DNA from: Sphyrna mokarran
Taxonomy: Eukaryota
Direction of reading: 5' to 3'
Assembly (NCBI GenBank): GCA_024679065.1
Contig: JAGIQG010000016.1
Span: 2,542,001-2,606,000 of the forward strand
Length of the DNA stretch: 64,000 nucleotides
Part shown: one piece after another, positions 11,866 through 61,633 of the stretch
How the letters are laid out: the number at the start of each line of letters is the position of its first letter
Position numbering within the stretch: position 1 is the stretch's first letter
Translations under genes and position numbers: made by a program
Notes under the pieces: model-generated
Told to the model about the DNA's origin: nothing
The model's input: the letters and a program-made list of their open reading frames with translations, nothing else
The model's database searches: none

Positions 11866-11896
11866 AAGTCAAGCTGTATAACTCGTACCATTACAG

Positions 11897-26355: not shown

Positions 26356-26500
26356 NNNNNNNNNNNNNNNNNNNNNNNNNNNNNNNNNNNNNNNNNNNNN
26401 NNNNNNNNNNNNNNNNNNNNNNNNNNNNNNNNNNNNNNNNNNNNNNNNNNNNNNNNNNNNNNNNNNNNNNNNNNNNNNNNNNNNNNNNNNNNNNNNNNNN
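26356..26500. other. Assembly gap (145 N)
   Basis: Run of N. Confidence 1.
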
Positions 26501-27060
26501 CTCTGCTGGGTTTTATGGTTCCAGGTCTTACAGACATAGATGATGTGATTCTCGTCCTCTTCCAGCACCCTGACCAGACCGTCTCTCAGAGCCCAGGAAG
26601 CAGCCCGGGTTTTCCCTGGCTTCTTATCCGAATACAGCCGCATCCACTGCCAGTAACACAGGGCACCGTAGGCCACGATGCCCAGCACCAGCTTGACTGG
26701 ACTCACTGACCACCTCCACATGGCTGTGGGTCAACGGATACGGGGAGACACGAGAAGCTTCAGGGGACCGGGAGCTGGACAGTGGTTCCAAGACAAGAGG
26801 TGTGTCAGTCACGCAGGGTCTGATTCAGTGAGGAACCCTCCCCAGTCATGAGGAAGACCTGCCATCAGAACGTAGGACTGAGGGTCCAGGAAGCAGAGCC
26901 CTGAGGAGCAGTGAGCTGGAGAACATGGAATGGAGTCACTGACTGGCCTGATAAGTATCCAGGGAGATACATCAAACTCTCCAAATACACAACTCCATTG
27001 TGAGGTCAGGGGAGAATGGGCTGATCACCATTGTTACCCATACAGGGACATCCATTTCCA

Positions 27061-27355
27061 NNNNNNNNNNNNNNNNNNNNNNNNNNNNNNNNNNNNNNNN
27101 NNNNNNNNNNNNNNNNNNNNNNNNNNNNNNNNNNNNNNNNNNNNNNNNNNNNNNNNNNNNNNNNNNNNNNNNNNNNNNNNNNNNNNNNNNNNNNNNNNNN
27201 NNNNNNNNNNNNNNNNNNNNNNNNNNNNNNNNNNNNNNNNNNNNNNNNNNNNNNNNNNNNNNNNNNNNNNNNNNNNNNNNNNNNNNNNNNNNNNNNNNNN
27301 NNNNNNNNNNNNNNNNNNNNNNNNNNNNNNNNNNNNNNNNNNNNNNNNNNNNNNN
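27061..27355. other. Assembly gap (295 N)
   Basis: Run of N. Confidence 1.
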
Positions 27356-34280: not shown

Positions 34281-34497
34281 GGGGCGTGGCAGGCGGAAGC
34301 CCGTGCCTAATATGGTCATTGACGTTGCGAAGGTGGGGATTCCCGCCCTGGATGATGCTTTGGGGTGAATCATTTTCCTGATGCAAGTTTCTCGTAATGA
34401 GACAGAGTGACAAAAACTCCTTCCTCACTCTGAGCACGTTTTATATTCACATTGGCGAGATCGGCTCTTGGATCCAGCAGAGAGCAACTCTGTAAGT
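34281..34497 (+). promoter_or_regulatory. Probable promoter and short non-coding exon 1 of the BTG gene
   Basis: GC box 34281-90, ETS core CGGAAG, CArG CCTAATATGG 34306-15, TGACGT 34320-25, kB GGGGATTCCC 34335-44, TGAATCA 34366-72, TGATGCAA 34379-86, TATA-like TTTTATAT 34439-46 and GTAAGT donor 34492-97. The ATG exon has its own acceptor at 37817-18. Confidence 0.65.
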
Positions 34498-35264
34498 AGC
34501 AGTTTACAACAAAAATAAAGTGAAATTTAAATTGAAACTAACCTGGGCAATAAGTTTATAAAACTTTCAGAAAAGTTTCTTCAAAAGTTTGCGCTGAACA
34601 TTTTCTTAGTAATGAGAATTAAACTGCCAACTATCTTTCAACAATCTCAGAGGAAATATATTTTTCAGGGATAGAAATATATTTTTCGAAGTTATTTAGA
34701 AGTTTGTTTTGTGAATGTTTGTGTTAGTTTAGAGAGTGTGATACAATAACTCGCTCCTTCGCTGTATTTCAGCGATACATCTCCCCAGCGATGCTCCCCA
34801 CACTTCTTTAGTCTCAACATTTTCTGTTTCTTTATCGTTTTAATTAATAAGTAATCTGTACCTAATCCTTGTGTTCAACTGTTTCACAAGAGCCCCGTTT
34901 CCAGCGGAACCGATGATCCTGTTACAGGAATCATCATCATTTCTGAGACAGGGTCAGGGAGTCACTCTGAAGGGAACAATTAATTTTCTCACCCCTTTTC
35001 GTTTGGGCCATGTGGATGTTGATGGGATGGTGCCTCATGTAAACCCGGGGAGCGCGGGGCGGAGGACGGTATAGCCGAGTACGGGGGGGGGGTACAGCAC
35101 GGGGCGGAGGAGGGTATAGCCGAGTGCGGGGGGGTACAGCACGGGGAGGGCCGGTGGGGTTTACCGGTATGCTTTTTAATATAAGACTGATTAATTCCTC
35201 AATGGGGGGTGTGTGAAAAGAGTTTTTGAAGATTAATAATTGAGTTGAACATTGGACGGGGCCA

Positions 35265-37130
35265 CGGGGGGGGGGGGGGGGGTAGTGTGTATGTGTGTGG
35301 GGGGGGATTGGGGGTTGGGTGTGTGTCGGGGGGTTGGTGTGTGTGTGTGTGTAGGGGGGGTTGTGTGTGGTGTGGTGTGTGGTGTGTGTGTGTGTGGGGG
35401 GTTAGGGTGTGTGTGTGTGGTGTGTGTAGTAGGGGGGGTTGGTTGTGTGTGTGTGTGTAGGGGGGGGTGTGTGTGTGTGTGTGTGGTGTGTGTACTACCC
35501 TAGAGGGGGGTGTGTGTGTGTGTGAGGGGGTTGGTGTGTGTTTGTGTGTGGGGGGTTGGTGTGTGTGTGTGTGTGTGTTGTAGGGTGGGTTTGTGTGTGG
35601 TGTGTGTGGTGTGTGTGGTGGTGGTGGTGTGTGTGTAGGGGGGGTTGGTGTGGTGTGGTGTGTGTGTAGGGGGGTGGTTGTGTGTTGTGCTGTGTGTGTG
35701 TAGGGGCGGGGTGTGTGTGTGGGGGGGGTTGTGGTGTAGGGGGGGTTGGTGGTGTGTGTGTGTAGGGGGTTGTGTGTGTGTGTGTCGTAGGGGGGTTGGT
35801 GTGTGTGTGTGTGTAGGGGGGTTGGCTATGTGTGTGTGCGGTGTGGTGGTGTGTGGGGGCTGGGTAGGGGGTGGTGTGTGTGTGTGTGTAGGGGGGGATT
35901 GTGTGTGTGTGTGTGTTTGTGGGGGGGGGATTGGGGGTGTGTGTGTGTGGGGGTGGTGTTTGTGTGGTGTGTGTGATGTAGGGGGGTTGGTGTTGGAGTG
36001 GGTGGTGGGAGGGGGGGTTGGTTTGGTGTGGGTGGGGAGTGGTGTGTGTGGGGAGGAGTGGGTGGGGTGTGGGGGGGGGGATGGTGTGGGGGGGGGGTGT
36101 GTTGTGGGGGGGGTGGTGTGTGTGGGGGGGATGGTGTGTGTGTGGGGGGGATTGTGTGTGTGTGGGGGGGGGGGGGGGGATTGTGTGTGTGTGGGGGGGG
36201 GGATTGTGTGTTGTGGGGGGGTGGTGTGGTGTGGTGTGTGTGTGGGGGGGGATTGGTGTGTGTGTGTGTGGGGGGGGATGGTGTGGTGTGGGTGGGATTG
36301 TTTGGTGTGTGGGGGGGGGATTGGTGTGTGTGTGGGGGGTGGGGGGGTGGGTGTGGGTGTGGGGGGGGATGTGTTGTGTGGGGGGGATTGGTGTGTGTGG
36401 GGGGGGGGGGATTGTGTGTGTGTGTGGGGGGGGGATTGGTGTGTGTGTGTGGGGGGGGATTGGTGTGGGGTGTGGGGGGGGAGGATTTTTGGGTTTTTTT
36501 TTGTGTGTGTGGGGGGGGATTGGGTGTGTGGTGTGGGGGGATTGGATTGTGTGTGTGTGTGTGGTGTGGGGGGGGGGATTGGTGGTGTGTATGGGGGGGA
36601 TTGGTGTTGTGTGTGTGGGGGCGTGATTGGTGTGTGTTTGGGGGGGGATGGTGTGTGGTTGTGTGGGGGGGATTGGTGTGTGTGGGGGGGGGATTGGTTT
36701 TTGATGTGTGTGGGGGGGGGATTGGTGTGGTGTGTGGGGGGGGATTGGTGTGTGGGTATGGGGTGTGTGTGTGGGGGGGGTGTGTGTGTATGGGGGGGAT
36801 TGGTTGTGTGTGTGGGGGGGGATTGGTGTGGTGTGTGTGTGGGGGGGGGTTCTTGGTGTTGTGCGGGGGGATTGTGTGTGTGTGTGGGGGGGGGAGTGGG
36901 GGGTGTGTGTGTGGGGGGGGGATGGTTTGGGTGTGATGGGGCGGATTGGTGTGTGTGTGTGGGGGGGGGATTTATTGGTGTGATTGTGTGGGCGGTGGTT
37001 GGTGTGGTGTGGGGGGGGATTGTGTGTGTGTGTGTGTGTAGGGGGGGGATTGGTGTGTGTGGGGGGGTTGTTGGTGTGTGCGTGTGTGGTGGGGGGGTGG
37101 GGGATTTTGACAATGTTGGGGATGTGGGGG
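35265..37130 (+). repeat. GT/G-run low-complexity array (ggggggattggtgtgtgt) in BTG intron 1
   Basis: Direct inspection. Confidence 0.92.
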
Positions 37131-37834
37131 GTCAGGATAACTGTCGCTCCCTGGCTCACAAATAAAGATCCGGTTGATGTGGCATGGCTTTCTGTGGAAT
37201 CTTGCTGTGTACCGCAATGTTTACCAGCACGTTTCTGGGATCTTCCTTTGTAAATCTTCTCCGCCCTCTCCCCGGTGTGTTTGGATAACCCTTCAATGAC
37301 ACAGCGACTAGAATTGTGTAAAGTTCTCCCCAGACTGGTCTGAACAAGATTTAATACGGGTTAGGTACGAGCAGGAGTTTTACAGCAAGAAAGAGGCCTT
37401 TCTGCCCATCGAGTCTGTGCTGGCCCATCAAATACCGATCTATTCTCATCCCAGTTTCCAGCACTTGATCTGTAGCCTTGTCTGTTGTGGACTTTCAAAT
37501 GCTTCTTACCTGTTGAGGGTTCCTGCCTCTCTCATCCCTTCAGGCAGTGAGTTCGAGTCCCATCACCCTGAAATCCCCAAATCTTCTCCAAATCTCCGGC
37601 CCCTTTCCTTAAACCTGTGATTCCTCCACCCAGGGGAATGATTCCTTCCTATCTACGTGACTTCTTTCTTTTTAAACAACTCAAGCCACCCCCCCTACCC
37701 TCCACCGAGGTGCTCACCTTGAATCGGGCTTGTCAGCGATGCCACTGCAGTCGAATAGCTCACCGGTTCTGCAATACTGGGCGGAATACGTTCTAACCCC
37801 AGTTGATTTCTCACTCAGACACATCGGAAGGAGG

Positions 37835-38007
37835 ATGAGGGAGGAGATTGGAGCCGGAGTGGTCTTCCTGGTGCGCTTGGTGAGCAGACGGAGTGAACTG
37901 CAGCGGGATAAGATTGAGGAGTTTGGTGAGAAACTGCGAGAGGTGCTACACCAGAAATACCAGGGTCACTGGTACCCAGGCAATCCCAGCAAAGGACAGG
38001 CGTACAG
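37835..38007 (+). CDS. BTG3/BTG4-like protein, first coding exon (MREEIGAGVVFLVRLV…HWYPGNPSKGQAYR)
   Basis: BTG/Tob N-terminus with HWYPxxPSKGQAYR. Acceptor before 37819 and GTAACC donor; phase 2. Confidence 0.95.
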
Positions 38008-38159
38008 GTAACCGAGAGCCACTCACTGTGTTGACCTCTCTCTCTCTCTGTTGTGATATTCTGGCCATTCGGCCCCTCTGCTCCAGGCTGGCATTCTTGA
38101 TCCACACCAGCTTCTTCCCACCCCATCTCCATATCTATCATGGGAACAGTGTGGATATT

Positions 38160-39375
38160 GGGTCAGTGCTGAGGGAGTGCCGCACTGTCAGAGGGTCAGT
38201 GCTGAGGGAGCGCCGCACTGTCAGAGGGTCAGTGCTGAGGGAGTGCCGCACTGTCAGAGGGTCAGTGCTGAGGGAGTGCCGCACTGTCAGAGGGTCAGTG
38301 CCGAGCGAAGTGCCGCACTTCGAGGGTCAGTGCTGTGAGAGAGTTGCCTGCAAGTCTGAGGGTCAGTGCCGAGCGAGTGCGCACGTCAGAGGGTCAGTGC
38401 TGAGGGAGTGCCGCACTGTCAGAGGGTCAGTGCTGAGAGGAGTGCTGCAACTGTCAGAGGGTCAGTGAATGAGGGAGTCGAAGAGCTGCCGCACTGTCAG
38501 AGGGTCAGTACTGAGGGAGTGCCGCACTGTCAGAGGGTCAGTGCTGAGGGAGTGCCACACTGTCAGAGGGTCAGTGCTGAGGGAGTGCCGCACTGTCAGA
38601 GGTCAGTACTGAGGAGCGCCGCACTGTCAGAGGGTCAGTGCCCTGAGGGGAGTGCCGCACTGTCAGAGGGTCGAGGTGAGATAGTGCCGCACTGTAAGAG
38701 GGTCCAGGTGCCGGCGAGGCCGCACTGTCAGAGGGTCAGTGCTGAAGGGAGTGCCGCATCTGTCCAGAGGGCAGTGCTGAGGAGTGCCGCACTGTCACAG
38801 AGGGTCAGTATGAGGGAGTCCGTACTGTCAGAGGGCAGTGCTGAGGGAATAGGCCGCACTGTCAGAGGGTCAGTGCTGAGGGAGTGCCGCAATGCTCTGA
38901 GGGTCAGTGTGAGGGATGCCGCACTGTCAGAGGGCAGTCGCTGAGGGAGTGCCTCACTGTCTGAGGGTCAGTGCCGAGCGAGTGCCGCACTGTCTGAGGG
39001 TCAGTGCTGAGGGAGTGCCGCACTGTCAGAGATACTGTCTTTTAGGATGATCCAATAAACCAAGGCTTCATCTCCTCTCATGGGATGGATGTGAAAAAAT
39101 TATTTGTAAGAACAAGGGTGGGGGGATGGGATTGGGATTGGGGTGGAGTTCTCTTCAGTGTCCAGGGGCCAATGTTTATCCTGCAGTAAAAAAACTATCA
39201 TTGTGCTTTATCATCACATTGCTGCCTGTGGAATCTTGCTGTGCACAAGTTGTATGTTGTTTTTTTCCACAAAGCTGACCATACTATCCCTTCCACCCAT
39301 TAAAAAAAACCTCTTTAAATGCCTGAAACACTTTGTGTGGTCCTGTGTGGGGACAGGCGCTATCGAAATGCGCTC
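38160..39375 (+). mobile_element. Deu-domain SINE (SacSINE1/AmnSINE-like) with internal 33-bp expansion
   Basis: Array 38160-39030 runs directly into cactgtcagagatactgtcttttaggatga…taaaccaaggc…ggatgtgaaaa…cacattgctgcctgtggaatcttgctgtgc…ggcgctatcgaaatgc. Confidence 0.75.
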
Positions 39376-39871
39376 GTTCCTTTGTCACTTGTCCCTGCAG
39401 TACCGCCATGGCCCACGCAGTGGTGCTAGTGTTCCCAATGTGGCTGCGCTACACCATTTACTAGCGGCGCCTGTTTTTATAGGAAAAGTAACAACAACTT
39501 GCATTTATATAGCACTGAACCAAGAGAAAAATATTGGTCTTGTTTGGGAACCTGAAATTTAAACAGAAAATGCTGCTTAGAATTTTTGCAGCATTTTCCC
39601 TCTGTTTTTATACCTTGCTTTTTATATTGTAAAGATGTTTCTGTGTTTGATGTTGAGTCAGAATGTAAGTCAAATTAGTCAGAATTGGAGGAGTGCAGAG
39701 ATCTGGCAGGAGTAATTTGACAGATCTTGAACGGAAGTTGGATTAGGAGCTGCTGTCAGTTGGTGAGTGACTGTGGGGGATGGTGAAAGGTTAGTTTAGG
39801 GTGAGTCTGGAAATGCGACAGTTTAATGTTGTTGAAGATTCCATCAGTTAATTTTCCCCTCTTCCTGATAG

Positions 39872-40009
39872 GTGCATTCGGATAAACAGGAACCAGAAAA
39901 TAGACCCCGCACTGCTACTGGCCTGTCAGGACTGTGAGCTGGACTATAATCAGCTGAAACTTCCCAAGGAGATTACACTGTGGATCGATCCCAGAGAGGT
40001 GTGGTGTCG
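39872..40009 (+). CDS. BTG3/4-like exon with Box A/Box B: CIRINRNQKIDPALLLACQDCELDYNQLKLPKEITLWIDPREVWCR
   Basis: TAG acceptor and GTAAGT donor; 138 nt, phase 2-2. Canonical LPxExTLWxDPxEV motif. Not present in the ORF track. Confidence 0.96.
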
Positions 40010-40159
40010 GTAAGTCTACACACACACATCAGTTTGCAAAGACCAACACAGAGGCTTGTGTACAATCATTCCCAGTCTGAGTATTGTGTCCAGTCCTGAC
40101 CACAGTTCCCTTTGGGAAGAATGTCAGGACCTTGGAGAGTGTGCAAAGGGTTACCAGAA

Positions 40160-41290
40160 TTTTGCCTTTGACAAGGTCCTACATGGGAGCTTAGTTAGGA
40201 AGAGTCTGGGTATGCATGGAGAGGTAGTAAATTGGATTAGACATTGGCTCAATGGAAGAAGCCAGTGAGTAATAGTGAAGGATTGCTTCTCTGAGTGGAG
40301 GCCTGTGACTAGTGGGGTGCTACAGGGATCAGTGCTGGGTCCATTTTTATCAATGGTCTGGATGATAATGTGGTAAATTGGATCAGTAAACTTGCTGATG
40401 ATACAAAGATTGGAGGTGTAATGGAACAGTGAGGAAGGTTTTCAAAGCTTGCATGGGGATTTGGTGCAGCTGGAAAAATGGGCTGAAAAATGGCAGATGA
40501 ATGCAGACAAGTGTGAGGTATTTGCACTTTGGACGGACAACCCAAGGTAGAACATACAAGGTAAATGGTAGGACACTGAAGAGTGCAGTAGAACAGAGGG
40601 ATCTGGGAATACAGGTACAGAATTCCCTAAAAGTGGCGTCACAGGTAGATAGGGTCGTAAAGAGTGTTTTTGATACTTTGGCCTTTATGAATCAAAATAT
40701 TGAGTATGAGAGTTGGAATGTTATGGTGAGGTTGTGTAAGACATTAGTGAGGTCGAATTTAGAGTATTGTGTGCAGTTTTGGTCAGCTAATTACAGGAAG
40801 AATATTAATAAGATTGAAAGAGTGCAGAGAAGGTTCACAAGGATGTTGCCGGGACTTGAGAAGCTGCGTTACAGAGAGAGATTGAATAGATTGGGACTTT
40901 ATTCCCTGGAGCGTAGAAGAATGAGGGAAGATTTAATAGAGATGTATAAAATTATGATGGGTATAGATAGTGAATGCAAACAGGCTTTTTCCACTGAGAC
41001 TAAGAAAGAAAAAAAAACCAGAGGACATGGGTTAAGGGAGAAGAGTTTAAATGGAATATTAGGGGGGGATTCTTCACGCAGAGAGTGGTAGGAGTGTGGA
41101 ATGAGTTGCCAGATGAAGTGGTAAATGCGGGTTCACTTTAATCATTTAAGAAAAACGCGTTCATGGATGAGAGGGGTGTGGAGGGATACGGTCCAGGTGC
41201 AGGTCAGTGGGACTAGGCAGAAAAATGGTTCGGCACAGACAAGAAGGGCCAAAAGGCCTGTTTCTGTGCTGTAATTTTTTTATGATTCTA
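40160..41290 (+). mobile_element. CR1 LINE reverse-transcriptase 3' fragment in a BTG intron
   Basis: AFDKV.H, SGV.QGSVLGP, KLADDTK, LEYCVQFW and IERVQRRFTRM. Confidence 0.95.
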
Positions 41291-41783
41291 ATATTCCCAG
41301 GGATGAGGGGGCTTCAGTTCGTGCGGAGACAGGGAGAAGCTGGGATCCTTCCCCTCGGAACACAGAGGTTAAGGGGGAGATTGAATTGAGGAGTTCAGAA
41401 TCATGAGGGGTGGGGTGTTTGGACGGAGTGAATGAGGAGAAAGTGTTTACAGTGACAGGAGGCTCAGTAACCAGAAGGGACACAGATTGAAGAGAATCAG
41501 GAAAAGAACCAGAGAGCAGGGGAGATGGGGAGAATTTTATTTTGGACACACAGTGAGTTGTGATCTGGAAGGTGCTGATTCATTAGGAACTTTCAAAAAG
41601 GGGGAATGGGGTCTGGGTGTCTCTCATCCTGGCGCCCGTGTACATGCTGTGCCATGGTTTGGGGGCCGGGCACACACACACACTCTCGTTCTTAGTGCTG
41701 TGTGTGGTGTTTGTGCAGGAGGCTGTTTTGTCACCACTGTGTCTGAGGTTCACACTAACCTCTGGTTTTCTGAATCGCTGTAG

Positions 41784-41994
41784 GTCTGGAGAGAGCAGTC
41801 AGCCCTTCACCGTGGCTGAGTTTGAACAGGACTCCAGGAAGCTGAGATCACAGGATTCTGAGCCCAGCAGTGAAGTATCATCAGAGTGCAGCACATCTGA
41901 TTACCACTCAGACACCTCGTCAGACGATGACGAACATATCAAAGGACAAGCGACCAAGGAGCCAACGGCAAAAATTGCTGCTGTTCCTCACAAG
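41784..41994 (+). CDS. BTG3/4-like exon: SGESSQPFTVAEFEQ…TSDYHSDTSSDDDE…VPHK
   Basis: TAG acceptor and GTGATT donor; 211 nt, phase 2-0. GE..PFxVAxF and TSDYHSxxSS motifs of BTG3. Confidence 0.9.
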
Positions 41995-42164
41995 GTGATT
42001 GACAGGAATATCGAGTATCTGGACTGGGGGTTAGGGGGGAGGTCAGAGTGAACAAACTCTCAGGATTTAACCTCCAACTGCCCCCATTACTCAGCCCGAA
42101 CTGAGACCCATTCAACCATCTCCACTTGTCACTCACTGACCCCATGCTGACCTCCTGACTCCAG

Positions 42165-43000
42165 CAATCTTATCTCTGTAACCCCCTCCAGCCCCAACAC
42201 TCCTCCCTATCTCTGTAACCCCCTCCAGCCCCAACACTCCTCCCTATCTCTGTAACCCCCTCCAGCCCCAACACTCCTCCCATCTCTGTAACCCCCTCCA
42301 GCCCCAACACCCCTCCCTATCTCTGTAACCCCCTCCACCCCAACACCTCTCCCTATAACAGAACCCCCTCCAGCCCCAATACCCCTCCCTATCCAGTAAC
42401 CCCCTCCGCCCCCAACACCTCTCCTATATCAGTAACCCCCCTCCAGCCCAATACCCCTCCCTATCTCAGTAACCCCCTCCAGCCCCTACACCCCCTCCCT
42501 ATCTCAGTAACCTCCCCCAGTTCCAACACCTCTCCCTATCTCAGTAACCTCCTCCAGCCCCTTCACCCCTTCCTATCTCTGTAACCTTCTCCAAACCCTA
42601 CAACCCTCCTTATCTCAGTACTGTCCTCCAGCCCCAACACCCCTCCCTATCTCAGTAACCCCCTCTGCCCCAACACCTCCCTATCTCTGTAACCTCCTCC
42701 AGCCCCAACACCTCTCCCTATCTCTGAACCTCCTCCAGCCCCTTCACCCCTTCCTATCTCTGTAATCTTCTCCAAACCCTACAACCCTCCTTATCTTGGT
42801 ACTGTCCTCCAGCCCCAACACCACTTCCTATCTCTCTCATCTCCTCCAGCCTCTATACTTTGAAATCTCTGTGAATCCTCCAATTCCGCCTCTTGAACAT
42901 CCCACGATTCCCATTGCTCTGCCGTTGGTGGCCATGCCTTCAGCTGCCTGGGGGGCTCTATGCACTGGAATTCCCTCCCTAAACCTCTCCAACTTTCTCT
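42165..43000 (+). mobile_element. L2-type LINE 3' fragment with internal 37-bp minisatellite
   Basis: Unit ccctatctctgtaacctcctccagccccaacac (PYLCNLLQP) runs into ggtggccatgccttcagctgcc…tggaattccctccc (GG.AFS…WNSLP). Confidence 0.75.
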
Positions 43001-43427
43001 ATCACTTTCATTCTCACTCATTGCTCTGTCTCTCTCTTCCTGGCATTTTAATGCAACATTAATCCAAGACTCTGCCTGCCTTCTTAGGGTGGATGTAAAA
43101 TATCCCACACTCACTATCTGGAAGAAAGGGAGGTGAGGTCTCCCTGGTATCCTGGAACCGATATTTATCCCTCAAACAATATCGCTTAAAAAATGCTCTG
43201 GGCCATTGCTGTTTGTGGGATTTTGCTGTTGCAGAGGTGACTGCTGCATTTTCTACTATTCAGCAGTGATCACATTTCAGATAAATGATTTCATTCATTG
43301 GGAAATCTTTGAGGTAGTGACAGGCACTAGAGGAATGCAGGTCGGAACACAGGGGACTGGGCTGGGAATGAAGGGGAGTTTGTGTGCTTGGAAATGTTGT
43401 TTAGTTGCTTAAATTGATTTTTCTCAG

Positions 43428-43634
43428 GTTTCCGGAAGTTTCTCCTTCCCCGCAGCCACCTGGCCTCCATACCCTCACAAGTTGGTGCCGTACACCACTG
43501 CCTTCTACCAACCTGTGCCCCTGGTCAGTTATTACCTGATACCCAGACCGGACAGTGCATTGCGACCTCCGCCAGGCTTTCTCCTCACTCAGACACAGCC
43601 ACACCGTTCAAAGATGGGCAAAAGGCACAAATGA
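43428..43634 (+). CDS. BTG3/4-like terminal exon, Pro-rich: VSGSFSFPAATWPPYPHK…KMGKRHK*
   Basis: tttttctCAG acceptor; phase 0; open for 68 codons to TGA 43632-34. FP…W.P.P.K resembles the BTG3 tail. Total CDS 729 nt. Confidence 0.8.
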   Translation, partial: VSGSFSFPAATWPPYPHKLVPYTTAFYQPVPLVSYYLIPRPDSALRPPPGFLLTQTQPHRSKMGKRHK

Positions 43635-43739
43635 CCAGTGTCCTGGCTGACCAGATGGATCGGATACCTCACCATCACTGAGCTGTGACCAACCCTGTGC
43701 TTGACCACTCTGTACTAATACCTATGGGCAAGTCTGCAA

Positions 43740-44140
43740 TTGTGTGTGTGCATATGGGAGAAATGTTGCTGTATACAGCACCGTGGGGGATATTGTTGTA
43801 TACGACATTGTGCGTGGGGACTATTGTTGTATAGACACTGCATATCCGTTTGTGTGTGTGTGTGAATGAGTCAGAGAAATATTGCTGTATGCATTCTGTG
43901 AGAGAATGATTGAGAATATTGCTGTATATAACATTTTGTGTGAATGTGAACGAGTCGGAAATAATTACTGTGTAATTATTGAGAAGTATAATGCTGTGTA
44001 CAATGCTGTGTGAATGATTGAGAGAGGAATATTGCTGTATACAACATTCACTGAGTGAATATTGCTCCGTACAAGTGTGTGTGTGTGTGAATGAGTCGGG
44101 AATATTGTTATATATAACACTCAGTCTGTGTGTGTATATC
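43740..44140 (+). repeat. Degenerate tandem repeat (aatattgctgtatacaacatt…gtgtgtgaatgagtc) in the BTG 3'UTR
   Basis: About 8 diverged units. Confidence 0.7.
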
Positions 44141-44280
44141 ATTGACTTTATGGTTCATACTATTGCCTGTCTGTGTATATCTTATACAGAAATTGAGGCA
44201 GTTTCTGTATTAGAAATCTAAACACTCAGGGATATCAGAAAATATCATCTTGTGTGTCCACCTTGTCTGACAGCTGTTTG

Positions 44281-44325
44281 TTATTTATAATATTTCTATT
44301 GGAGAATGTGTGATATTAAATTAAA
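44281..44325 (+). promoter_or_regulatory. Candidate BTG 3' end: AU-rich nonamer TTATTTATA and overlapping ATTAAA poly(A) signals
   Basis: TTATTTATA at 44281-89 and ATTAAATTAAA at 44315-25, about 650 nt after the stop codon. Confidence 0.45.
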
Positions 44326-45009
44326 ATAACCCAGAGTCATTGTTCATATGTACCTGTCAAATCATCATGTCTAACTTATGGAATATATATCATGTTTTTG
44401 TACATTTCTTATATCTCCTGAACACTATCTACACCTTCCTGTTGAAATCTGAGCCTTTCTCAGGTATGAAGCTTAACTGTGATGCCTGTCATAGTCAAAT
44501 AGCTCATCCACATCCACCGAATGAGGCTCCAGCGGGAGCCTGGTGTCAGTGGAATGAACTGGAGTTCAAAAACATTAGGACAAAATCTCGGATTGAAATG
44601 GTTTTTAAAAATGAATATTGGGTAGTCTAACTTATATTTGCCAGGGTGGTACAATGGTTAGCACTGCTTGCCTCACAGTGCCAGGGACCCGGGTTCATTT
44701 GGGTAATTTAAATTTGCCAAAAAATGATCTGAAAGATTGGATTTGGGGAACTGTTTCCTGAGGATAAGAGGCTGAGGAACAAGTTTGGATCTCTAGGAAT
44801 TTATTTTATATCTGTTGTTCTCCCTTGATGTGTGACTGGTTACTCCTGGGTCCCTGTATCTTCCTCCCAGGCTGGGGAAGGGTCTCCCAAATCAGCTTGC
44901 TGTGTCCATTCATTCCAGAGGCTGTGTTAACACACTGATCCCATGGTCTGCTCTGCCATTCACCACTGCCAGCCTCAAATAGGGAGTACTGTTCCCAGCT
45001 CAGTAATCA

Positions 45010-50588: not shown

Positions 50589-50691
50589 CATCGCTTTCGG
50601 AATATGTGAACCCCAATTCCAGCAACAACAAAAACAGCAACAAGAATTCCAATTCCCAATCCAACTCTTGTTCCGATAGAGTGTTCACGAC
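50589..50691 (-). CDS. Transmembrane exon (GREHSIGTRVGLGIGILVAVFVVAGIGVHIFRKR)
   Basis: ttctgtctcTAG acceptor and GTGAGT donor; 103 nt, phase 1-2. Hydrophobic helix followed by RKR stop-transfer. Confidence 0.88.
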
Positions 50692-50766
50692 CTAGAGACA
50701 GAATGAAGCCATTAACAGACTGGAACACACTCACAAAACTAACAGCAGAGACTTTCAGCATCGAGT

Positions 50767-51574
50767 GGGCCAGATTCTCCCGTCACAAAGAGCATGTTTT
50801 TTGATGTGTCCAGTTGGGAGATGCATGTTGGCCGTTTCTCCCACAGCCGGAGAGCAGGCGCCATCAGGATAGTACTGGAAACCAGCGGGAAGATAGGTGA
50901 GTGACTTATATCTGTTTTTAATCTTATTTAAATGCTTTTATTGGGCCCAGGCCAGAATTCTCCGAGGGCAATAGCATCTCCCACCGCGCTAGGAGTATTT
51001 CACACCTTTGGGGTTTAGAGTAGCTCCCCACTTGCACAGAAGAGGGGAGAGGAGCAGTAGGGCAATGGGGGAGGGTTGGATACCCTGGCACTACCATTCA
51101 GCAGTGGCAAGAGGACGGATGCTGCGGGGCCATTGGTGGGTATGAGGGGTCCTGCTAGCACTCTGCAGATAGAATCAGTCAGGGCTGGAGGCAGGCTAAC
51201 AATTGGAGTGGAGGGGGAAATTGTTAGTGCTGAGGTGGGAAGGCTGGTGGCTGAAGATTGCAGTGCTCCTGGGTGGGGGAGTCGGCGCTGGCCTGGGAAT
51301 GCTTGTGTGGACCATGGGAGTGATGTCAGGGGCAGCACTGCAAAAATCCTGGGGCTGGTCAGCCTTGACGCATGCACAGAGTTTTGGAACTGTCAGGTCA
51401 GGTGTGAATAGGCCCGCCCCCACCCCGAGCTTTTAATGATAGTCACAACTGTGACCTCTGCATTGCACAGAGCGTGGGGGATTTGAGTCTGGACTCCCAG
51501 TGAAAAAACAATCATGAATCACATCACCTTTCCTGCAAATTCAGCACCTAGAATTTTTTGGGAGAATCAGGCCC
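50767..51574. mobile_element. Non-autonomous DNA transposon (PIF/Harbinger-like MITE)
   Basis: Terminal inverted repeats gggccagattctccc / gggagaatcaggccc (14/15 match). Confidence 0.75.
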
Positions 51575-52302
51575 ACTCTTTCAGAACCATCCCTAATATA
51601 AACAGATTCCTGATTAATTCTAATCCTGGAGGGTCGTGGGAGGTTAGACACCAATAATCATACACATTCACCAGGCCACCCCACAGCTTCTTGCACACAG
51701 ACACTGCTCCATAATGTGATCGATACATGCCTTCCAATAAAGATAACTGGACATTGAACAGCAGCAGCCCCCCTTCAATTCAACCTTACTGCACGCTGAA
51801 ATAGAGGAGGGAGATGGTGAGATAGCCATTTGATTGCTTGGTGAGCTCAATCAATATTACTGATCTTTGATGCAAAATAGTGATAGAGGAGTCTGAGATG
51901 TTGGGTTGATTCTGTGAGTATTACTATGTCACACAACTCTCCCAACTGCGACACCAGTCCCCAGATGTTAGTGAGGGGACTTTGCAATGTTAACCAGGCT
52001 GGGTGTGTCTGTGTTCCCTGATTCGATACCTGGCTCACAGCCAGTGATCCCTTCAGTTTTATTCTGGTTTCTCTGTCTAGTGGTTTAATACAAACTGATT
52101 GAAGTATCTGAGCAAGTCAGAGGGCAGTTAGAAGTCACCCAGGTTAATGTGGTAATGGAGTCACATATAGACCAGATTGGGTAAGGACAACAGGTTTTCT
52201 TTGCTAAAGGGACATTAGTGAACCTGTTTTACAACAATTTTGTGGTAATCTATACATTTCCAGGCCTAATTATTAATTTTGAACTAAATTGAAACCTCTT
52301 AC

Positions 52303-52647
52303 CTGTTACAGAGAGAAGGACAAAATCAGTTTGCTCCTGTTGATATCCTGCACCCGCCTCCTCATAAAACTGACACTGATACTCATTCTGGTCTGACTCC
52401 CTGAGGCTAGAGAGCAGAACTGACCAGTTTCCTTGTTCCAGTTGATCTTTGAACAGTTTTGTTCTGTCTCTGAACCGTGGATCTTGTTCTCTCAAATCAT
52501 CGTTTCCATTTATGTACTTGTGTAAAAATTCACGTTTGGGAGTTCCCCAAGTCACCAGTAAATCTGAGACTGGGACATTCCCTCTGTAGGTACAGGGCAG
52601 CACAACCTGCTCCCCAGGGAACCCAGAAACTGGGTCAGGTAAGAAAT
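52303..52647 (-). CDS. B7/butyrophilin-like IgV exon V3
   Basis: 345 nt, phase 1-1, CAG…GTAAGA. Intact V-set motifs. Confidence 0.92.
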
Positions 52648-53129
52648 CTGGAAAAGATTGTAAGTATTTATCCACAGATATAACCTTCTCTGATACACTG
52701 CAACCCAAGCTTCACATGGTTACACTGCGATGCTTGATTTACAAGAAGCACTGATTAGTACCTCACTGCTTTCATTTCATTAAGTTCAGGAATATTCCAT
52801 TTAGAATGTTCTGCGCACAATTCAGCATTTTTAAGATGGAAACATCTCACCATCAAACTATGAAACAATTAAAACTCAAAATGTTCTTACAAGTCTCTTT
52901 CTCTACAGGATTGTGTGGAATGCTGGATTACACATAGGTAAATATTTCTCTCTACTGATTTCACCCAGTATTACAGCTAATCCCAACAGTTTTTCAACAA
53001 GTTGGTTTGGGTAAAATTTTCCACACACAATTCCAGAAATACTAATGCTAGGGCGAATCAGGAAACCTCAGAGTTCTGCATCTGAGGGACAGGAAGATAA
53101 GAAATAACAATTCCCAGTAGTTTAAGGGC

Positions 53130-53305
53130 CAATTACAGGTATGAGTGACCCACACCACTCACTCTCACACAATCAGTTACAGGTAAGAGTGACCCACACT
53201 ACTCACTCGCACACAATCAGTTACAGGGAACAGTGACCCACACCACTCACTCTCACACAATCAGTTACAGATAACAGTGACCCACACCACTCACTCTCAC
53301 ACAAT
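53130..53305 (+). repeat. About 45-bp tandem repeat, 4 copies
   Basis: gtgacccacaccactcactctcacacaatcagttacagg. Confidence 0.85.
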
Positions 53306-53314
53306 TGTTCTTGG

Positions 53315-53592
53315 GTGGCATAATAGCATAATTGTTAGCACTGCTGCCTCTCAGCGCCAGGGACCTGGGTTCGATTCCCGACTTGGGTCACTGACTGTGT
53401 GAAATATGAACGTTCTCCCCATGACTGCATGGGTTCCCTCCGGGTGCTCCAGTTTCCTCCCACAGTCTGAAAGATGTGCTGGTTAGGTGCATTGACCCGA
53501 ACAGGCACCAGAGTGTGGCAACTAGGGAATTTCACAGTAACTTCATTGAATTGTTAATGTAAGCTTTACTTGTGACAAATAAATAAACTTTA
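53315..53592 (+). mobile_element. tRNA-derived SINE
   Basis: ggttcgattcc B box, core and tail. Confidence 0.88.
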
Positions 53593-53689
53593 CAGCATTT
53601 CAAACCTTCCAATGTTACTTGCTGTCTATCTGGCATGTAATGAGTTTTAAGAGCTGAAAACACATGCAGCAGTTTAGAAACTGATTTAC

Positions 53690-53728
53690 CTGGTTCAGTT
53701 GTGTTCGGTCCAGGTGTAGAAGGTCGCT
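53690..53728 (-). CDS. Pro/Thr-rich linker exon (ERPSTPGPNTTEP)
   Basis: tgttttcttTAG acceptor and GTAAAT donor; 39 nt, phase 1-1. Confidence 0.72.
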
Positions 53729-55117
53729 CTAAAGAAAACATCATGTTTTAGTATTGTGTGCGACACAAACTGTAGAAATGATCAAAGACGCTATCGGGCT
53801 TTAGGGAAAGACATCCAGGGAGGAATGAGACTGGGCTCAAACTGACCAGGAAGGATCAGGAACAGGGTCAGCAGCGTGAAAAGTCTAACGGGATTGCATT
53901 AACTGTGATGGGTAGAATGGAAGTTTTCCAGAGCTCCCCTGAGCAGGATCATTCCCAGCAGTCCACACTCCCATTTTGGAGAGAATCCCCATAGGATCCT
54001 GGGCCCTCTGGGATACACTTTCAAGGTAAGCACAGTGGGTCCGAGAAGTGTTGTGGACTCCACTCCGACATCTGGAGACAGATGGAGCATGTTTCTGGAG
54101 AGTGAGTGCAGCTTGATGGCACCATTAACTCCATTCCTATCCTGAGGGCTCAGCTAGCTCTGTCACTGGGTTATTACCAAGGCAGCCTTAGTGATGACCA
54201 GTGAATTCTCCCTCAGCTGAGCGAGGGCAGTCAGTGATAATCAGCAGGAGATTTTCAGGCTCACATTTGTCCTAAAACTGTGAAACTTCATGGAGTTCAG
54301 AGTCAATGTTGAGGATTCCTGGAGCCACTCCCTCCTGACTGCGTCCCCACCTCTGGTGGGTCTGAGCTGTTAGTGGGACAGGACACACCTAGGGATGATT
54401 TAAAGGAATTTGAGACGTAGGGTTGATTCTGTGAGTATTACTATGTCACACAGCTCTTCCAACCTCGACACCAGTCCCCAGATGTTAGTGAGGGGACTTT
54501 GCAATGTCAACCAGGCTGGATGTGTCTGTGTTTCCTGATTCGATACCTGGCTCACAGCCAGTGATCCCTTCAGTTTTATTCTGGTTTCTCTGTCTAGTGG
54601 TTTAATACAAACTGATTGAAGTGTCTGAGCAAGTCAGAGGGCAGTTAGAAGTCACCCGGGTTAATGTGGGAATGGAGTCACATATAGACCAGACTGGGTA
54701 AGGATGGCGGGTTTCTTTCCCTAACAAGATATTAATGAACCCTGTTGGGGTTTTACAACAATCCAACAGCTTCATGAGCACTTTTATTGGGACCAACTTT
54801 ATCAACAGGATTTTACAGCCTCACTCCAGCAAGACTGAAATTCCTATTCAATGTCAATGGAGATTTCCGTTGTTGAAGCCTCAGCCGCTCCAGTTCTTGG
54901 GCGGGCAAGGTGGTAGAGTTCTGACCTGTATTTCCAGATTTTTATTCAATGAACTGAATTTGAATTCTGAAAATGCGACGGTGGGATTTGAATTCACATT
55001 CTCTGGGATTATTAGTCCAGGTCTCTGGATTACGAGTCTAGTAACGTAACCACTGCATGACTCAACTCATAAAAATCAGAGGTTAAGTACAGAAAACCTG
55101 AAACAGAAATCTCTTAC

Positions 55118-55462
55118 CTGTAACAAAGAGATAGATGAGATGAGTTTGCTCCAGTTGATATCCTGCCTGCGTTCTCTTGTAAATCTTACATTGATAATGC
55201 TTCTGGTCTGACTCCCTGAGGTTAGAAAGCAGAACAGACCAGTTTCCTTGTTCCAGTTGATCTTTGAATAACTTTGTTCTGTTTCTGAACCATGGCTCTT
55301 GCTCTGTCAAATCATCTTTCCCATTGGTGAATTTGTGTAATATCTCAAACTTTGCTGTCCACCAAATCACCATTAAATCTGAGACTGGGACATTTCCTTT
55401 GTAGGTACAGGGCAACACAACCTGTTCCCCAAGGAACCCAAACACTGGGACAGACGAGTCAC
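55118..55462 (-). CDS. B7/butyrophilin-like IgV exon V2
   Basis: 345 nt, phase 1-1, CAG…GTAAGA. Intact V-set Cys/Trp/Cys. Confidence 0.92.
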
Positions 55463-56239
55463 CTGGGAAAAGATTGAAAGTATTTATCCATAGCTATAAC
55501 CTCCCTGCTGGTACATTACATCCCAAGCTTCACATGGTTACACTGCAATGTTTGATTTACAAGAATCACTGATCAGTACCTCACTGCTTTCATTTGTGTG
55601 GGAAAGTTAAAGCTCAAGCATTGAGGGCCTTTAACTAAAACCAGCTTGTGCTGGATATTTGTAAGCACAGAACAGCTGGACAGCACTTTGAATCACATCG
55701 TTTCCATTTGTACACATGCTGAGAGAACACATCAGGATATTGGTCACCTCCCCTTGGGAGAAAAATCACAGACTTGGGGTGGTGGGGGTGGACAATGTGA
55801 GATGGAATGGAGGGCTGAAAATTGACCCTGAAATGTAAAGACAGGAATGGGTGGGGGAGGGGATACCCAAGGATGTGGAATGAGGTTTGGACAGGTTGCG
55901 GGGGACAGCGATGGACGGGTATACTGTACAGGGGATGAGGCAGCACCTGATGGTCTGAAAGGGGTTGAGGCAATGTGGATCCTCATCTCTCTTCACCACT
56001 AACCTGTCAGACCATGCTTCTCCTCCCAATACAGCCAGACTCTGCCCTCTCCCAGGAACCAAAGCTCACGCCCCCCCCAGTCCTGATGATCCCCTAATCC
56101 ATCTGATCCCAGGAGTGTCCCAGACTCACGAGTATACAAGAAATAGAAGCAAGACTCAGCCCTCAGGTACTTCAAGCCTGCTTTGCCATTCAATACTTTC
56201 ACAGTTGATCTATGCCAGCCTCACTTATGTACAAAGTGA

Positions 56240-56690
56240 CCATATTTTAAATCAGTGACTCCTGGTTTTAGATTCTCCTACAAGAGGAAATATCCTCTCC
56301 ACATCTACCCTGTCGATACCTCTCAGCAGCTGAAGAGTTTTGATCAAGTTGCCTCTTATTCTTCTAAATTCCTGTAGATACAAAGCTAACGTCTCCACCC
56401 TTTCCTCATAAGACATCCAGCCCCTTCCTTTATTAGTTTAAACCTTCTCAATACAGTTTCTAACACATTTACATCTTTCCTTAAAAAAGGAGACACTTAC
56501 TATACACCATCCTTTGGATGTGGTCTCACCAATGCCCTACTTAACTGAAGCATAACCTCCCTACTTTATATCAATTCCTCTTACAACAAACAATAACAGT
56601 CTATTAACTTTCCAAATTACTTGTTGTACTTGCATATCTGTCTTTTGTGATTCATGCACTAGGACACCCAGATCCCTCTGCAGGACAACA
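56240..56690 (-). mobile_element. CR1 LINE fragment
   Basis: Reverse complement of the LVRPH…/LEFRR.RG.L segments. Confidence 0.75.
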
Positions 56691-57749
56691 GCTTTTCTTC
56701 CCTCATAGGTCATAGCATCCTTACAGTGCAGAAGTGGAGGCTATTTGGCCCTTGGAGTCTGTACCAACTCTTCAATAGAACACCTTACCCAGGCCCTATC
56801 CTCATAACCTTATACATTTACCCACTAATCCACCCAACCTTCACGTCTGGAGAAACTAAAGGGGCAAGCCCAATCCAATTGTTTTTGCTGGAGTGGGTGG
56901 CAGATCTCATAGAGACTTATAAAATTCTAACTGGACTAGACAGGGTGGATGCAAGGAGGATGTTCCCAATGATGGGGAAGTCAAAAAACAAAGAAAATGA
57001 CAGCATAAGAACAGGTCCTTCGGCCCTCCAAGCTTGCACTGGCAGTCCAAAAGCAGGGGTCACAGGCTGAGGATTCAGAGTAGACCATTTAGGACAAAGA
57101 TGAGGAAACATTTCTTTACCCAGAGAGTAGTGAGCCTGTGGAATTCATTACCACAGCTATTAGTTGATGCCAAAACATTGAATGTATTCAAGAGGTGGCT
57201 TCCCCATCATCGGGAACATCCTCCCTGCTTCTACCCTGTCTAGTCCAGTTAGAATTTTATAAGTCTCTATGAAATCCCCCACCCACTCTAGCAAAAACAA
57301 TTCTAACCTAGTCAATCTCTCCTCATACACCAGTCCCAGAATCAGCCCGGTATCCCCTATGGGTGTCTGTTGCACAATGTTGAAAGTATTAGTGAGCAGT
57401 GGTATGAGGTAGATGGTCCTGGAGGTATTTGTATTTGTAAGTAGCACAGCTCATCTGATGAATTTAGCTCTCTCAGTGTCGTGAACATTTCACTGACCAC
57501 TTGGAAAACAGCAAATGGAGTGCCAGTTCCCCCTGCTGACTGCTGAACTTGTTTGATTTTCTTCTGCTCCTACAGAGACCATAACTGAAACGCAGCAAGC
57601 ATAGTCTCTTCAAATGATGAGCAAAACCAATGCAAATTCCAAGTGTAATTCTGAATAACAATACTGATAGAATGTGCACTTCAAGTGAACCAGTTTGGTA
57701 TGCAGAAAAATGTCTTCCCCATCAGTTTTTTCCATGAGATATTATAATT

Positions 57750-58004
57750 TTAAAGTTTGTTTATTAGTCACAAGTGAGGCTTCCATTAACACTGCAATGA
57801 AATCACTGTGAAATTCCCCTAGCTGCCATACTCTGGCGCCTGTTCAGGTCAATGCACCCTAAACAGCACGTCTTGCAGTCTGTGAAAGGAAACACATGCA
57901 GACATGTGGAGAATGTGCAAACTCCAAATAGACAGTGACCCAAGTCGGGAATTGAACCTGTTCCCTGGTGCTATGAGGCAACAGTGCTAACCATTGTGCC
58001 ACCG
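57750..58004 (-). mobile_element. tRNA-derived SINE
   Basis: Full length, reverse orientation. Confidence 0.85.
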
Positions 58005-58269
58005 TTTATATTCCAAAGTTATTCCTCCACCCCTACAGTTACCAATTGCGAGAAGCCTCCATCTTGCTCTTGCTAAATCGACGTTGACCTTGTTTTTGAC
58101 AATCCATGTAATGTCAGCACCATCTGGGAGCCAGATAATGCAAAACTATCTGAGTGAGAGTCAGTAGTTGAATATTTCCACTGGCAGCCACTGTTCCTTT
58201 ATTCCAGCATTCCTTTAAGCTATTCTGAGTGAGCCATCTCATCATAATAAATTCAAATAATGGAGTCAA

Positions 58270-59410
58270 TGCTCCCAAAAATTGCTGAATTGGTAGGAAA
58301 ACTGGTCCAGATCACAACTGTTTTTTCAGTGCAGCTTGAGAATGAATCTCCCCATTCTGTCCACTGCAGAGGTCACAATCATGAGTCCCATTAAAAACCT
58401 GACCAGGGGCCTATTCACAGCAGAGTCCATTAACTCTGGAATTCTACGTGTGCGCAGCGGCCCTGATCTGTTAGATTCCCCAACTGCTGGTCAGCCCGGG
58501 ACCCCCCCCCCCCCCAGTGCTGCCCTCCCCGCACCCCTGCAGCTCAATCACAGCCCCCACAACAAGTCCCAGGGCAGCCCTGAGCCCCTCCCTCTCCCCA
58601 TCTCAGACCACCCAGATGTCAAGCCCCCCATGGTGGCGATACCTCCACCTCCCCTCAGAGGCAGACCCCCCCCAACAGGAGGCAGACCACCCCCACTCAT
58701 TGCCCCACCTCACCAGGAGGCAGACCCACCCACTCCCTCCCCCTCCCCTCATGGAGTCAGGCCCTCCACTTACCTCATTTCCCCCCCCAAAATTGCTGGC
58801 CTCCCTCCAGTCCAGGCCGATCCCCATGCAGAGTAGCAGCGGGATGCCCCCCCCACTCCCACCAATCATCCCCTAGGACCCACCCAAAATAGGCCCTGCT
58901 CCCTTGGCACTGCCCAATGCCCCATTGTGTCCCCTTGGCATGGACACTTTGCCCCTTGGGCAGTGCCAGGTAGCACAGACTGGTTCTGCCATGGTGCTCA
59001 TGCCCAGGGGACACCACACCCCACCACCCAATCCCTTGGGGATCTCCAATCATCAGCCTGCACTCCAACGGGGTTTCCCATTAGCTCTCCAAATGTGGGG
59101 AGCTAGTCTAATCCCTGTCAGAGTGAAATATTCCTGGCAGAGTGAGGAGGGAATTGTATCAGACTTAGCACAGAACTTGCCGATAATCATATGTAAAACA
59201 GATTTAAAACACATTAAAAACAGATTGAAATCTCTTGTCTCTCTTTCCACCGGTTTTCAGCATGGTCCCGACTACGACTGTTCTCTGGCTCTCAGAGACG
59301 TGCATAGGTCGGGAACTCGTGCGTGAATCCTATGAAATGGCTGGAACATGCATTTCCCGACCTGACACGCCCTGCCAGAAAATTTGCAGGTTGCAATGGA
59401 GAATCGCTCT
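58270..59410. mobile_element. Same MITE family, opposite orientation
   Basis: ctcccaaaa…gctgaattg at the left end and ggagaatcgc at the right end; internal homology to the other copies. Confidence 0.6.
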
Positions 59411-59782
59411 CTGTTTCTCCTTGGCACATCGGATATGGTAGTTGATCTGTCCAATTTAAAACTGGACCCAAATTCTGATCAAAAATATCCATGTCTCACC
59501 TGTCTCTAATCTCCCTGCTTCGTATCTCTCACGAACTAATGGCGAGTACGCAATGAGAAAGGGGCATAGATACATGGCAAGCTCCCCACACCAGCCCATC
59601 GGTTTGGCTTGGCCCAAGGTGGACTCAGGGCTACCAAAGTTAGATCCCTAGTGGCCATATGCCTGTCTCAGGGGCTGGGCATGCAGTCTCCCAACAGGCT
59701 GAGGGAGCACACACACACACACACACACTGGAGACCTTGTGTCCCAGTCTGATTCTTAGTAAACCAGTTGGGGTTTTACAGA

Positions 59783-60082
59783 TGGGCAGCATGATGGCAT
59801 AGTGATTAACACTGCTGCCTCACAGTGCCATGAGTTCAGGTTCAATTCCCAGTTTGGGTTACTGTCTGTGCAGAGTCAGCATATTCTTCCCGTGTCTGTG
59901 TGTTTGCTCCGGTTTCCTCCCAAGTCCAAAGGCGTGCAGGTTAGGTGCATTGGCCAGGCTAAATTCTCCCTCTGTGTACCCGAACAGGCACCAAAGTGTG
60001 GTGACTAGAGAATTTTCACAGTAACTTCATTGCAGTGTTAATGTCAGCCTAATTGTGACACTAATAAATAAACTTTAAACTA
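59783..60082 (+). mobile_element. tRNA-derived SINE
   Basis: Full head, core and tail. Confidence 0.85.
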
Positions 60083-60479
60083 AACAATCCAACAGCTTCA
60101 TAGCTACTTTTATTGGGACCAACTTTATATTTCCAGATTTTTATTTAATAAATTGAATTTAAATTCTGAAAGTGCTGTATGGGATTTAAAACAGAAATGA
60201 GGAGGAATTACTTCACTCAGAGGGCCCCACAGTACAGTGGACACCACAACACGAAACAGATTTCAGGAGATCAATAGGTTTTTGATTAGTAACGGGATGA
60301 AAGGTAATGGAGAATGGACATGAAGGTGCAGGTTAAGTGCCATGGTGGGATTTGAACTCACATTCTCAGGATTATTAGTCCAGATCTCTGGATTTCTAGT
60401 CTAGTAACATAACCACTGCATGACTGAACCCATAAAATGATTGATTAAATGCATAAAACCTGAAACAGAAACTTCTCAC

Positions 60480-60821
60480 CTGTTACAGAGAGATAGATGT
60501 GACAACTCTTCTCCCAATGATATCCTGCACTCGTCCTCTTGTAGATCCGACACCGATACTCACCCTGGTCTGACTTTCTGATGTCAGAGAGCAGAACTGA
60601 CCAGTTTCCTTGTTCCAGTTGAGCTTCGAACAGCTTTGTTCTGTTTCTGAACCGTGGTTCTTGTCCTGTCAACTTGCCTCCATGGATAAACTCATGCATA
60701 ATTTCAAAGATCGATGTGCTCCAGATTACTAGTAAATCTGAGACTGGGACATTCCCTTTGTAGGTACAGGGCAGCACAACCTGCTCCCCAAGGAACCCAG
60801 AAACTGGCACAAGCAAATCAC
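60480..60821 (-). CDS. B7/butyrophilin-like IgV exon V1
   Basis: 342 nt, phase 1-1, CAG…GTGAGA. VVLPC, W, FRNRTKLF..QLEQGNWSVLL..DQGEYRC. Confidence 0.92.
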
Positions 60822-61015
60822 CTGGAAACATTTGAAAGTATTTATCCACAGATATATATGCTATGTTACATCCCAAGCCTGCTCTTCCCTCCAATACAAC
60901 CAGACTCTGCTCCCTCCTAGGATCCAAAGTCCACTCTCCAGTTCTGATGGCCTTACTCCCCATGCTCCTAAAACATTCCCAACTCAATTTGATACCAAGA
61001 CTATCTGAGAATTCT

Positions 61016-61569: not shown

Positions 61570-61633
61570 CTGAAACACCAGCAACAACACTCAGCAGCAG
61601 CAGCAGCAGAACTAGTTTGTGGAAGTTGTGTTC
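61570..61633 (-). CDS. B7-like gene, signal peptide exon (EHNFHKLVLLLLLLSVVAGVS)
   Basis: ttttcttgttgCAG acceptor and GTAAGA donor; 64 nt, phase 0-1. Poly-Leu h-region and small-residue cleavage site. Confidence 0.88.

Follow-up and report, generated by a model that had tools for sequence, protein, structure and literature searches.

Which member of the BTG/Tob family stands downstream of SPACA6 in a shark, and by what kind of duplication it arose, is the question raised by a 64,000-nucleotide stretch of Sphyrna mokarran DNA (assembly GCA_024679065.1, contig JAGIQG010000016.1, positions 2,542,001 to 2,606,000), here called the window and numbered from its first letter. The gene has four coding exons on the plus strand (37835-38007, 39872-40009, 41784-41994 and 43428-43634) which when joined make 729 nt, specifying 242 amino acids and a stop, with GT-AG borders at all three introns. 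A transcript contig of 2231 nt from run X1 spans all four without a mismatch or gap. Each of the four transcript runs compared, three of them from other organisms, contains the exon 3-4 joint; the RNA status of these runs is only guessed by label, although the contigs do skip introns. The shark gene is a real and spliced one, and the complete 242-residue BTG protein read by a first-pass annotation is confirmed by the exon join and, without difference, by the X1 contig. Sequence comparison supports the gene being neither BTG3 nor BTG4 but a third BTG3/BTG4 paralogue, BTG5. Taken as a whole, a reading in which this third paralogue by SPACA6 arose through genome duplication, was lost in mammals and is a predicted adaptor of CAF1 (CNOT7/8) seems probable.

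Relatives were collected by word searches (5 matches; the best 120 of 316; the best 120 of 912) and a profile search (the best 150 of 2103), and 30 proteins were checked by name. The main tree, built from 71 hand-picked rows and 220 columns with 12 outgroup rows taken as invertebrate from their tree position, has three jawed-vertebrate clades, namely BTG5 with 31 rows including the window (support 100/100), BTG3 with 11 (100/99) and BTG4 with 13 (98/94), and places the duplication that separated them after the outgroup and before the split of sharks and bony vertebrates. The BTG5 clade recurs in a tree of the APRO domain alone (100/98), and the window also stands apart from BTG3 and BTG4 in a quick tree of 121 rows and in a FastTree of 355 of 363 rows (clade support 89); the long teleost BTG4 row P0255, which fell among cyclostomes in the APRO-only tree, was left out of later trees and tests. 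The protein thus nests in neither BTG3 nor BTG4, and forcing the eight shark and ray rows into either clade on 220 columns is rejected by the approximately unbiased (AU) test (p 0.0023 for BTG3 and 0.0013 for BTG4). Inside the clade of the window protein lie P0283/P0370, the Xenopus laevis 'B-cell translocation gene 5, gene 2' (btg5.2), which makes BTG5 the natural name for the lineage.

The upstream neighbour is SPACA6, and the window starts inside it. With its 5' exons before the window, the part at 399-15325 on the plus strand holds the end of the four-helix bundle, the hinge, the immunoglobulin (Ig) domain and the transmembrane (TM) segment, recognised by their match to the SPACA6 part of a turtle protein. 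Joined together these exons match that part of turtle P0367/P0368 (E 6e-21, 28% over 160 residues), which itself matches human SPACA6 7ta2 (E 4.8e-38), and the cysteine spacing across hinge and Ig domain is 3,10,2,4,6,16,53 in the window and 3,10,2,4,5,16,55 in human SPACA6 by the cysteine numbers given in the main text of PMC9482655. From single exons human SPACA6 was not recovered in PDB, Pfam or ESM Atlas, Pfam giving a generic Ig and a sub-threshold Izumo-Ig match only. The shark SPACA6 is apparently intact at 399-15325, and the word 'shark' is absent from the main text of that structure paper (PMC9482655). Turtle LOC117869664 (P0223/P0367/P0368) has SPACA6 as its front half and BTG5 as its back half, in the order and strand of the shark window, and so the adjacency of the two, seen in the shark window and in one turtle gene model, is ancient. 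Three RefSeq isoforms of the turtle gene join the SPACA6 ectodomain, without its TM segment, to a full BTG5, either by an annotation merge or by read-through. The first-pass annotation had put the BTG gene beside SPACA6, which holds for the identity of the upstream neighbour, but SPACA6 ends some 19 kb upstream with two N runs in between.

BTG5 is flanked within the window by SPACA6 and a B7-like V-set gene, and not by CXADR and C21orf91, which flank BTG3. Human BTG3 is on chr21 and BTG4 on chr11, and to our knowledge no BTG gene stands beside human SPACA6. Human SPACA6 is the host of miR-99b/let-7e/miR-125a (Table 1 of PMC7369991), and PMC3384580 attributes this cluster and its sister clusters on chr21 and chr11 to 2R, the early vertebrate genome duplications, and describes birds as without the linked miRNA cluster A. 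Since SPACA6 hosts one of three 2R-derived clusters, BTG5 is likely an ohnologue, and its origin in an early vertebrate genome duplication is held with fair assurance. A coelacanth BTG3 isoform skips precisely the 46 codons of window exon 3, so both introns around that exon are common to BTG3 and BTG5 and retroposition is excluded. The tree, the turtle SPACA6 adjacency and the presence of three paralogues in coelacanth support what had been proposed at the outset, that this may be the BTG ohnologue of the SPACA6 paralogon rather than BTG3 or BTG4.

Named members of the BTG5 clade come from sharks, rays, coelacanth, lungfish, bichir, paddlefish, sturgeons, teleosts, caecilians, newts, frogs, a turtle and squamates, and several of the teleost and coelacanth entries carry the database name si:dkey-79d12.5; a named chimaera or gar sequence was not among the matches listed. 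The amniote branch of BTG5 in the 355-row FastTree comprises eight rows, one turtle and seven squamates, with no mammal, bird or crocodilian among the matches listed. Two mammalian matches called 'BTG3-like' (Chrysochloris P0046, Balaenoptera P0120) were set aside, as they nest in mammalian BTG3 and not BTG5. Loss of BTG5 in mammals, as put forward at the outset, is likely, given that no mammalian BTG5 appears among the best matches of each search and that reviews count six members. The lineage is widespread outside mammals and had already been named in Xenopus. Coelacanth BTG3, BTG4 and BTG5 lie on separate contigs of 264.1, 32.2 and 25.9 Mb, BTG3 and BTG5 are on different contigs in bichir as well, and in Mustelus and Pristiophorus BTG4 is a gene apart (P0232 and P0226). 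In amphibians there are at least three BTG5 lineages (P0019, P0065, P0239, P0245, P0247, P0370 and related rows); two caecilian copies are apparently on one contig, and among the frog copies some end in long acidic repeats.

Several results weigh against the ohnologue reading of BTG5. Between SPACA6 and BTG5 the window has N runs at 26356-26500 and 27061-27355, a doubt offset by the turtle SPACA6-BTG5 fusion, be it merge or read-through, and outside the window the adjacency has one turtle gene model behind it. No miR-99, let-7 or miR-125 is present in the window, where no miRNA of any kind reached the Rfam gathering score, and Rfam on 1-35000 gave two chance-level mir-2804 matches only. All three pairings of BTG3, BTG4 and BTG5 are allowed (p 0.50, 0.355 and 0.36) and four cyclostome rows form a group of their own (85/90 in the 71-row tree), so the duplication that gave BTG5 cannot be assigned to the first or the second round (1R or 2R). 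Lampreys and hagfish each have two genes of BTG3/4/5 type (P0260, P0268, P0265, P0272), every lamprey gene pairing with a hagfish one (support 96/96 and 96/86). In the frogs Spea, Bombina and Gastrophryne BTG5 and BTG4 are on contigs of equal size, size being only a proxy for chromosome. A shark BTG3 was not found among the matches listed in the relatives searches, although the BTG3/BTG4 search had no cartilaginous fish at all among its best 120 of 912 matches, and so its absence there says little. Lastly the placement with BTG3 is not rejected on the 118-column APRO domain alone (AU p 0.089).

The last two of these are also what would be expected if the window gene were a shark BTG3 (or BTG4) that had diverged and been translocated, as would the database names 'BTG3', 'BTG3-like' and 'maternal B9.10-like' and an APRO identity to BTG3 rows of 48-56%, similar to the 47-60% with bony-vertebrate BTG5 rows. 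Both placements fail on 220 columns, however, a WIDP motif and a YQP..YY tail tie the window to the BTG5 clade, the neighbour is that of turtle BTG5 and a separate shark BTG4 exists, all of which leaves a displaced BTG3 or BTG4 hardly credible. A second account would have BTG5 as a real third paralogue, but one copied from BTG3 or BTG4 by a small-scale duplication in the ancestor of jawed vertebrates and then relocated beside SPACA6. It gains from the sister relations of BTG5 with BTG3 and with BTG4 that are not rejected, from the seeming presence of BTG5 and BTG4 on one contig in the three frogs, a co-location also compatible with chromosome fusion, and from the linkage evidence coming from a single marker, SPACA6. 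On the other side, BTG5 and BTG4 are on different contigs in coelacanth, the skink Tiliqua, the caecilians Microcaecilia and Rhinatrema, and Ascaphus, and the shared introns exclude retroposition. The neighbouring SPACA6 moreover hosts a 2R-derived cluster with sisters on human chr21 and chr11 (PMC7369991, Table 1; PMC3384580), and a small-scale duplication is unlikely though not negligibly so.

Pfam BTG (PF07742) matches both APRO exons (E 2e-18 and 6e-13), and P0001, the orthologue from Mustelus asterias and the closest listed protein (210 of 242 residues identical), is also above the cut-off. A structure model of P0001 has a confident APRO domain over approximately residues 1-118 and a low-confidence tail, and matches BTG2 and Tob1 with a root mean square deviation (rmsd) of 2.2-2.3, including the Tob1 of the Tob-CAF1 complex 2d5r (E 1e-9, rmsd 2.3). 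Window residues H45, Y57, D69, W95 and D97 align with residues of BTG2 (Y65, D75, W103) and TOB1 (H45, D95) which PMC3517456 reports as required for CAF1 binding and growth arrest. Within the BTG5 clade H45, Y/F57, W95 and D97 are kept in 31/31 rows and D69 in 30/31. Position 105 in Box B is S in the window, I in BTG2 and TOB1, F in 11 of the 12 outgroup rows and Y in none of the 31 BTG5 rows; because BTG2 and TOB1 carry I there, the serine need not, as far as the alignment goes, impair CAF1 binding.

WIDP is found in 31/31 BTG5 rows, the I at that site occurring in 1/11 BTG3 and 0/14 BTG4 rows. The DRxHW-type tail motif is in none of the 31 BTG5 rows, in 14/14 BTG4, 5/11 BTG3 and 9/12 outgroup rows, and from its presence in the outgroup its absence in BTG5 is a derived loss. 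A different tail motif, YQPx(0-6)YY, is in 15/31 BTG5 rows against 0/41 others, and no match to boxC or PAM2 was found in the window protein. The first-pass annotation had listed GQAYR, DP, WxDP (WIDP in the protein), EVWCRSGE, TSDYHS and a KMGKRHK end, every one of which is in the translated protein, and rightly reported no C-terminal DRxHW; TSDYHS, which it called BTG3-like, is not specific to BTG3, for SDY[HYF]S is also in 8/14 BTG4 rows, and the divergent Box B EVWCRSGE is there as described, but its W is not diagnostic, being shared by two shark BTG4s. Three candidate markers of BTG5 were thus dropped, EVWCR with its W in 2/14 BTG4 rows (both of them the shark BTG4s), TSDYHS for its occurrence in BTG4, and the basic C-terminus since BTG4 rows carry 2-5 K/R in their final 15 residues.

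With these residues in place, binding of CAF1 and deadenylation by BTG5 are predicted with high confidence. The APRO domain would bind the CAF1 (CNOT7/8) deadenylase, and BTG5 as an adaptor would bring CAF1, and with it CCR4-NOT, to mRNAs whose poly(A) tails would then be shortened. PMC8632095 proposes that all BTG/Tob members link CAF1 to poly(A)-binding proteins via variable second surfaces, from which the same adaptor role may be inferred for BTG5, with the clade-specific tail as its likely second surface. The conserved aromatic motif in the disordered tail may then dock a partner that chooses the target mRNAs, a suggestion for which the chances seem about even. A wider proposal, which we would sooner doubt than hold, is that BTG5 is the seventh BTG/Tob gene of non-mammalian jawed vertebrates and the survivor of the copy that genome duplication left on the SPACA6/miR-99b paralogon, that a 450-million-year-old tail motif replaces DRxHW in it, that it directs CCR4-NOT to a distinct set of egg or early-embryo mRNAs, and that mammals have lost this clearance factor.

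Xenopus laevis btg5.2 (NP_001089000.1, UniProt Q5UC97), which we take to be xBtg-x (Wessely et al. 2005, cited in PMC3921104), is like shark BTG5 in its clade, WIDP and missing DRxHW, being 55% identical to Mustelus P0001 across 132 residues, and unlike it in having no TSDYHS, YQP..YY or basic end; amphibians have at least three BTG5 lineages, of which it represents one, so the shark gene is its co-orthologue. The title of Wessely et al., together with the loss of the DRxHW tail and a Box B position 105 that is never Y in the clade, would fit a BTG5 ohnologue that has departed from the CAF1 pathway and has its main role in Wnt/beta-catenin signalling, exerted by some other route. This is improbable, given that the residues essential for CAF1 binding (PMC3517456) are all retained, that position 105 is I in the CAF1-binding BTG2 and TOB1, that btg5.2 is an amphibian duplicate without the shared tail motif whose role may not transfer, and that a Wnt effect could itself act through mRNA decay.

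Other known genes compare with shark BTG5 as follows. In ray-finned fish and coelacanth the genes of si:dkey-79d12.5 type, which go by the names 'maternal B9.15' or 'BTG3' as well, share its clade, TSDYHS, the YFYHP and YY tail motifs and the SGE of Box B, whereas the ray-finned rows have QPWGAVKG-type tails and no basic end. BTG3 (ANA) shares SDYHS and the two intron positions around exon 3, but forms a separate clade in which 10 of 11 rows have WVDP and RYGE where the shark gene has WIDP and RSGE. BTG4 (PC3B, B9.10/B9.15) is 47-56% identical over the APRO domain and has EVWCR in sharks, but differs in its separate clade and DRxHW-type tail and is a distinct gene in Mustelus and Pristiophorus. 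BTG1/BTG2 and TOB1/TOB2 have the APRO fold and the CAF1-contact residues in common with it, the window protein being without boxC or PAM2.

The vertebrate BTG/Tob family is counted as six members in PMC8632095 and PMC2584112, and a seventh lineage in sharks, bony fish, amphibians, turtles and squamates would alter that count and unite frog btg5, so far an orphan, with fish si:dkey-79d12.5 in one family. In the genomes of fish, amphibians and reptiles, many genes labelled 'BTG3' or 'B9.15' would then be BTG5, a different gene, which bears on how fish and frog data on btg3 and btg4, from expression as well as knockouts, are interpreted. A literature search with most subscription journals and supplements outside its scope showed, among the papers listed, none on BTG5 phylogeny or synteny and none that treats BTG5 as a seventh BTG/Tob gene across vertebrates; a tilapia RNA-seq paper was the one listed for the name dkey-79d12.5. 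The BTG5 genes may already be grouped in orthology databases, and btg5 expression tables may sit in supplements. Mammals have commonly lost ohnologues and the biochemistry predicted here is of a conventional kind, which makes the finding moderately surprising.

Upstream of the coding part, a putative proximal promoter at 34281-34406 (plus strand) is a sequence reading with a GC-box-like start picked in the first pass, and a likely non-coding exon 1 at 34407-34491 (plus) is suggested by 85 nt that the X1 contig has extra 5' of 37819 and by a GTAAGT donor starting at 34492. The remaining exons, all on the plus strand and placed by open reading frame (ORF) join and transcript, are exon 2 at 37819-38007 (ATG at 37835, residues 1-58, Box A with H45 and Y57; also by Pfam), exon 3 at 39872-40009 (138 nt, residues 59-104 with D69 and W95-I-D97-P; also by Pfam), exon 4 at 41784-41994 (the SGE end of Box B, the last APRO strand and an acidic Ser-rich linker with TSDYHS; also by the model) and exon 5 at 43428-44500 (the Pro/aromatic tail with YQPx(5)YY, the basic end, the stop at 43632-43634 and a 3' UTR with ATTAAA at 44315). 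The gene end of 44325 given originally is too early, as the X1 contig reaches 44500 and then has about 535 nt more. Contigs from the three other organisms end at 44275-44305, close to that ATTAAA, and X1 continues toward an AATAAA at 45119, so alternative 3' ends between 44275 and 45120 are possible. TTTTAT is absent from the 3' UTR before 44804, which leaves no case for maternal translation of BTG5 driven by a cytoplasmic polyadenylation element.

Between the two N runs is a 560-bp unique island (26501-27060) with a minus-strand ORF from an ATG at 26721, running for 73 or more residues into the gap and including a hydrophobic stretch; it had no Pfam match and Atlas scores all below 0.9, and the island may hold a small gene or be a contig that was misplaced. 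On the far side of BTG5 a B7-family-like gene occupies 50590-61630 on the minus strand, with a signal-peptide exon at about 61570-61630, three V-set exons in tandem (60475-60837, 55116-55487 and 52298-52663) and a likely TM exon at about 50590-50680, but no sign of a C-type Ig exon; its best PDB matches are CD276 and VTCN1/B7-H4.

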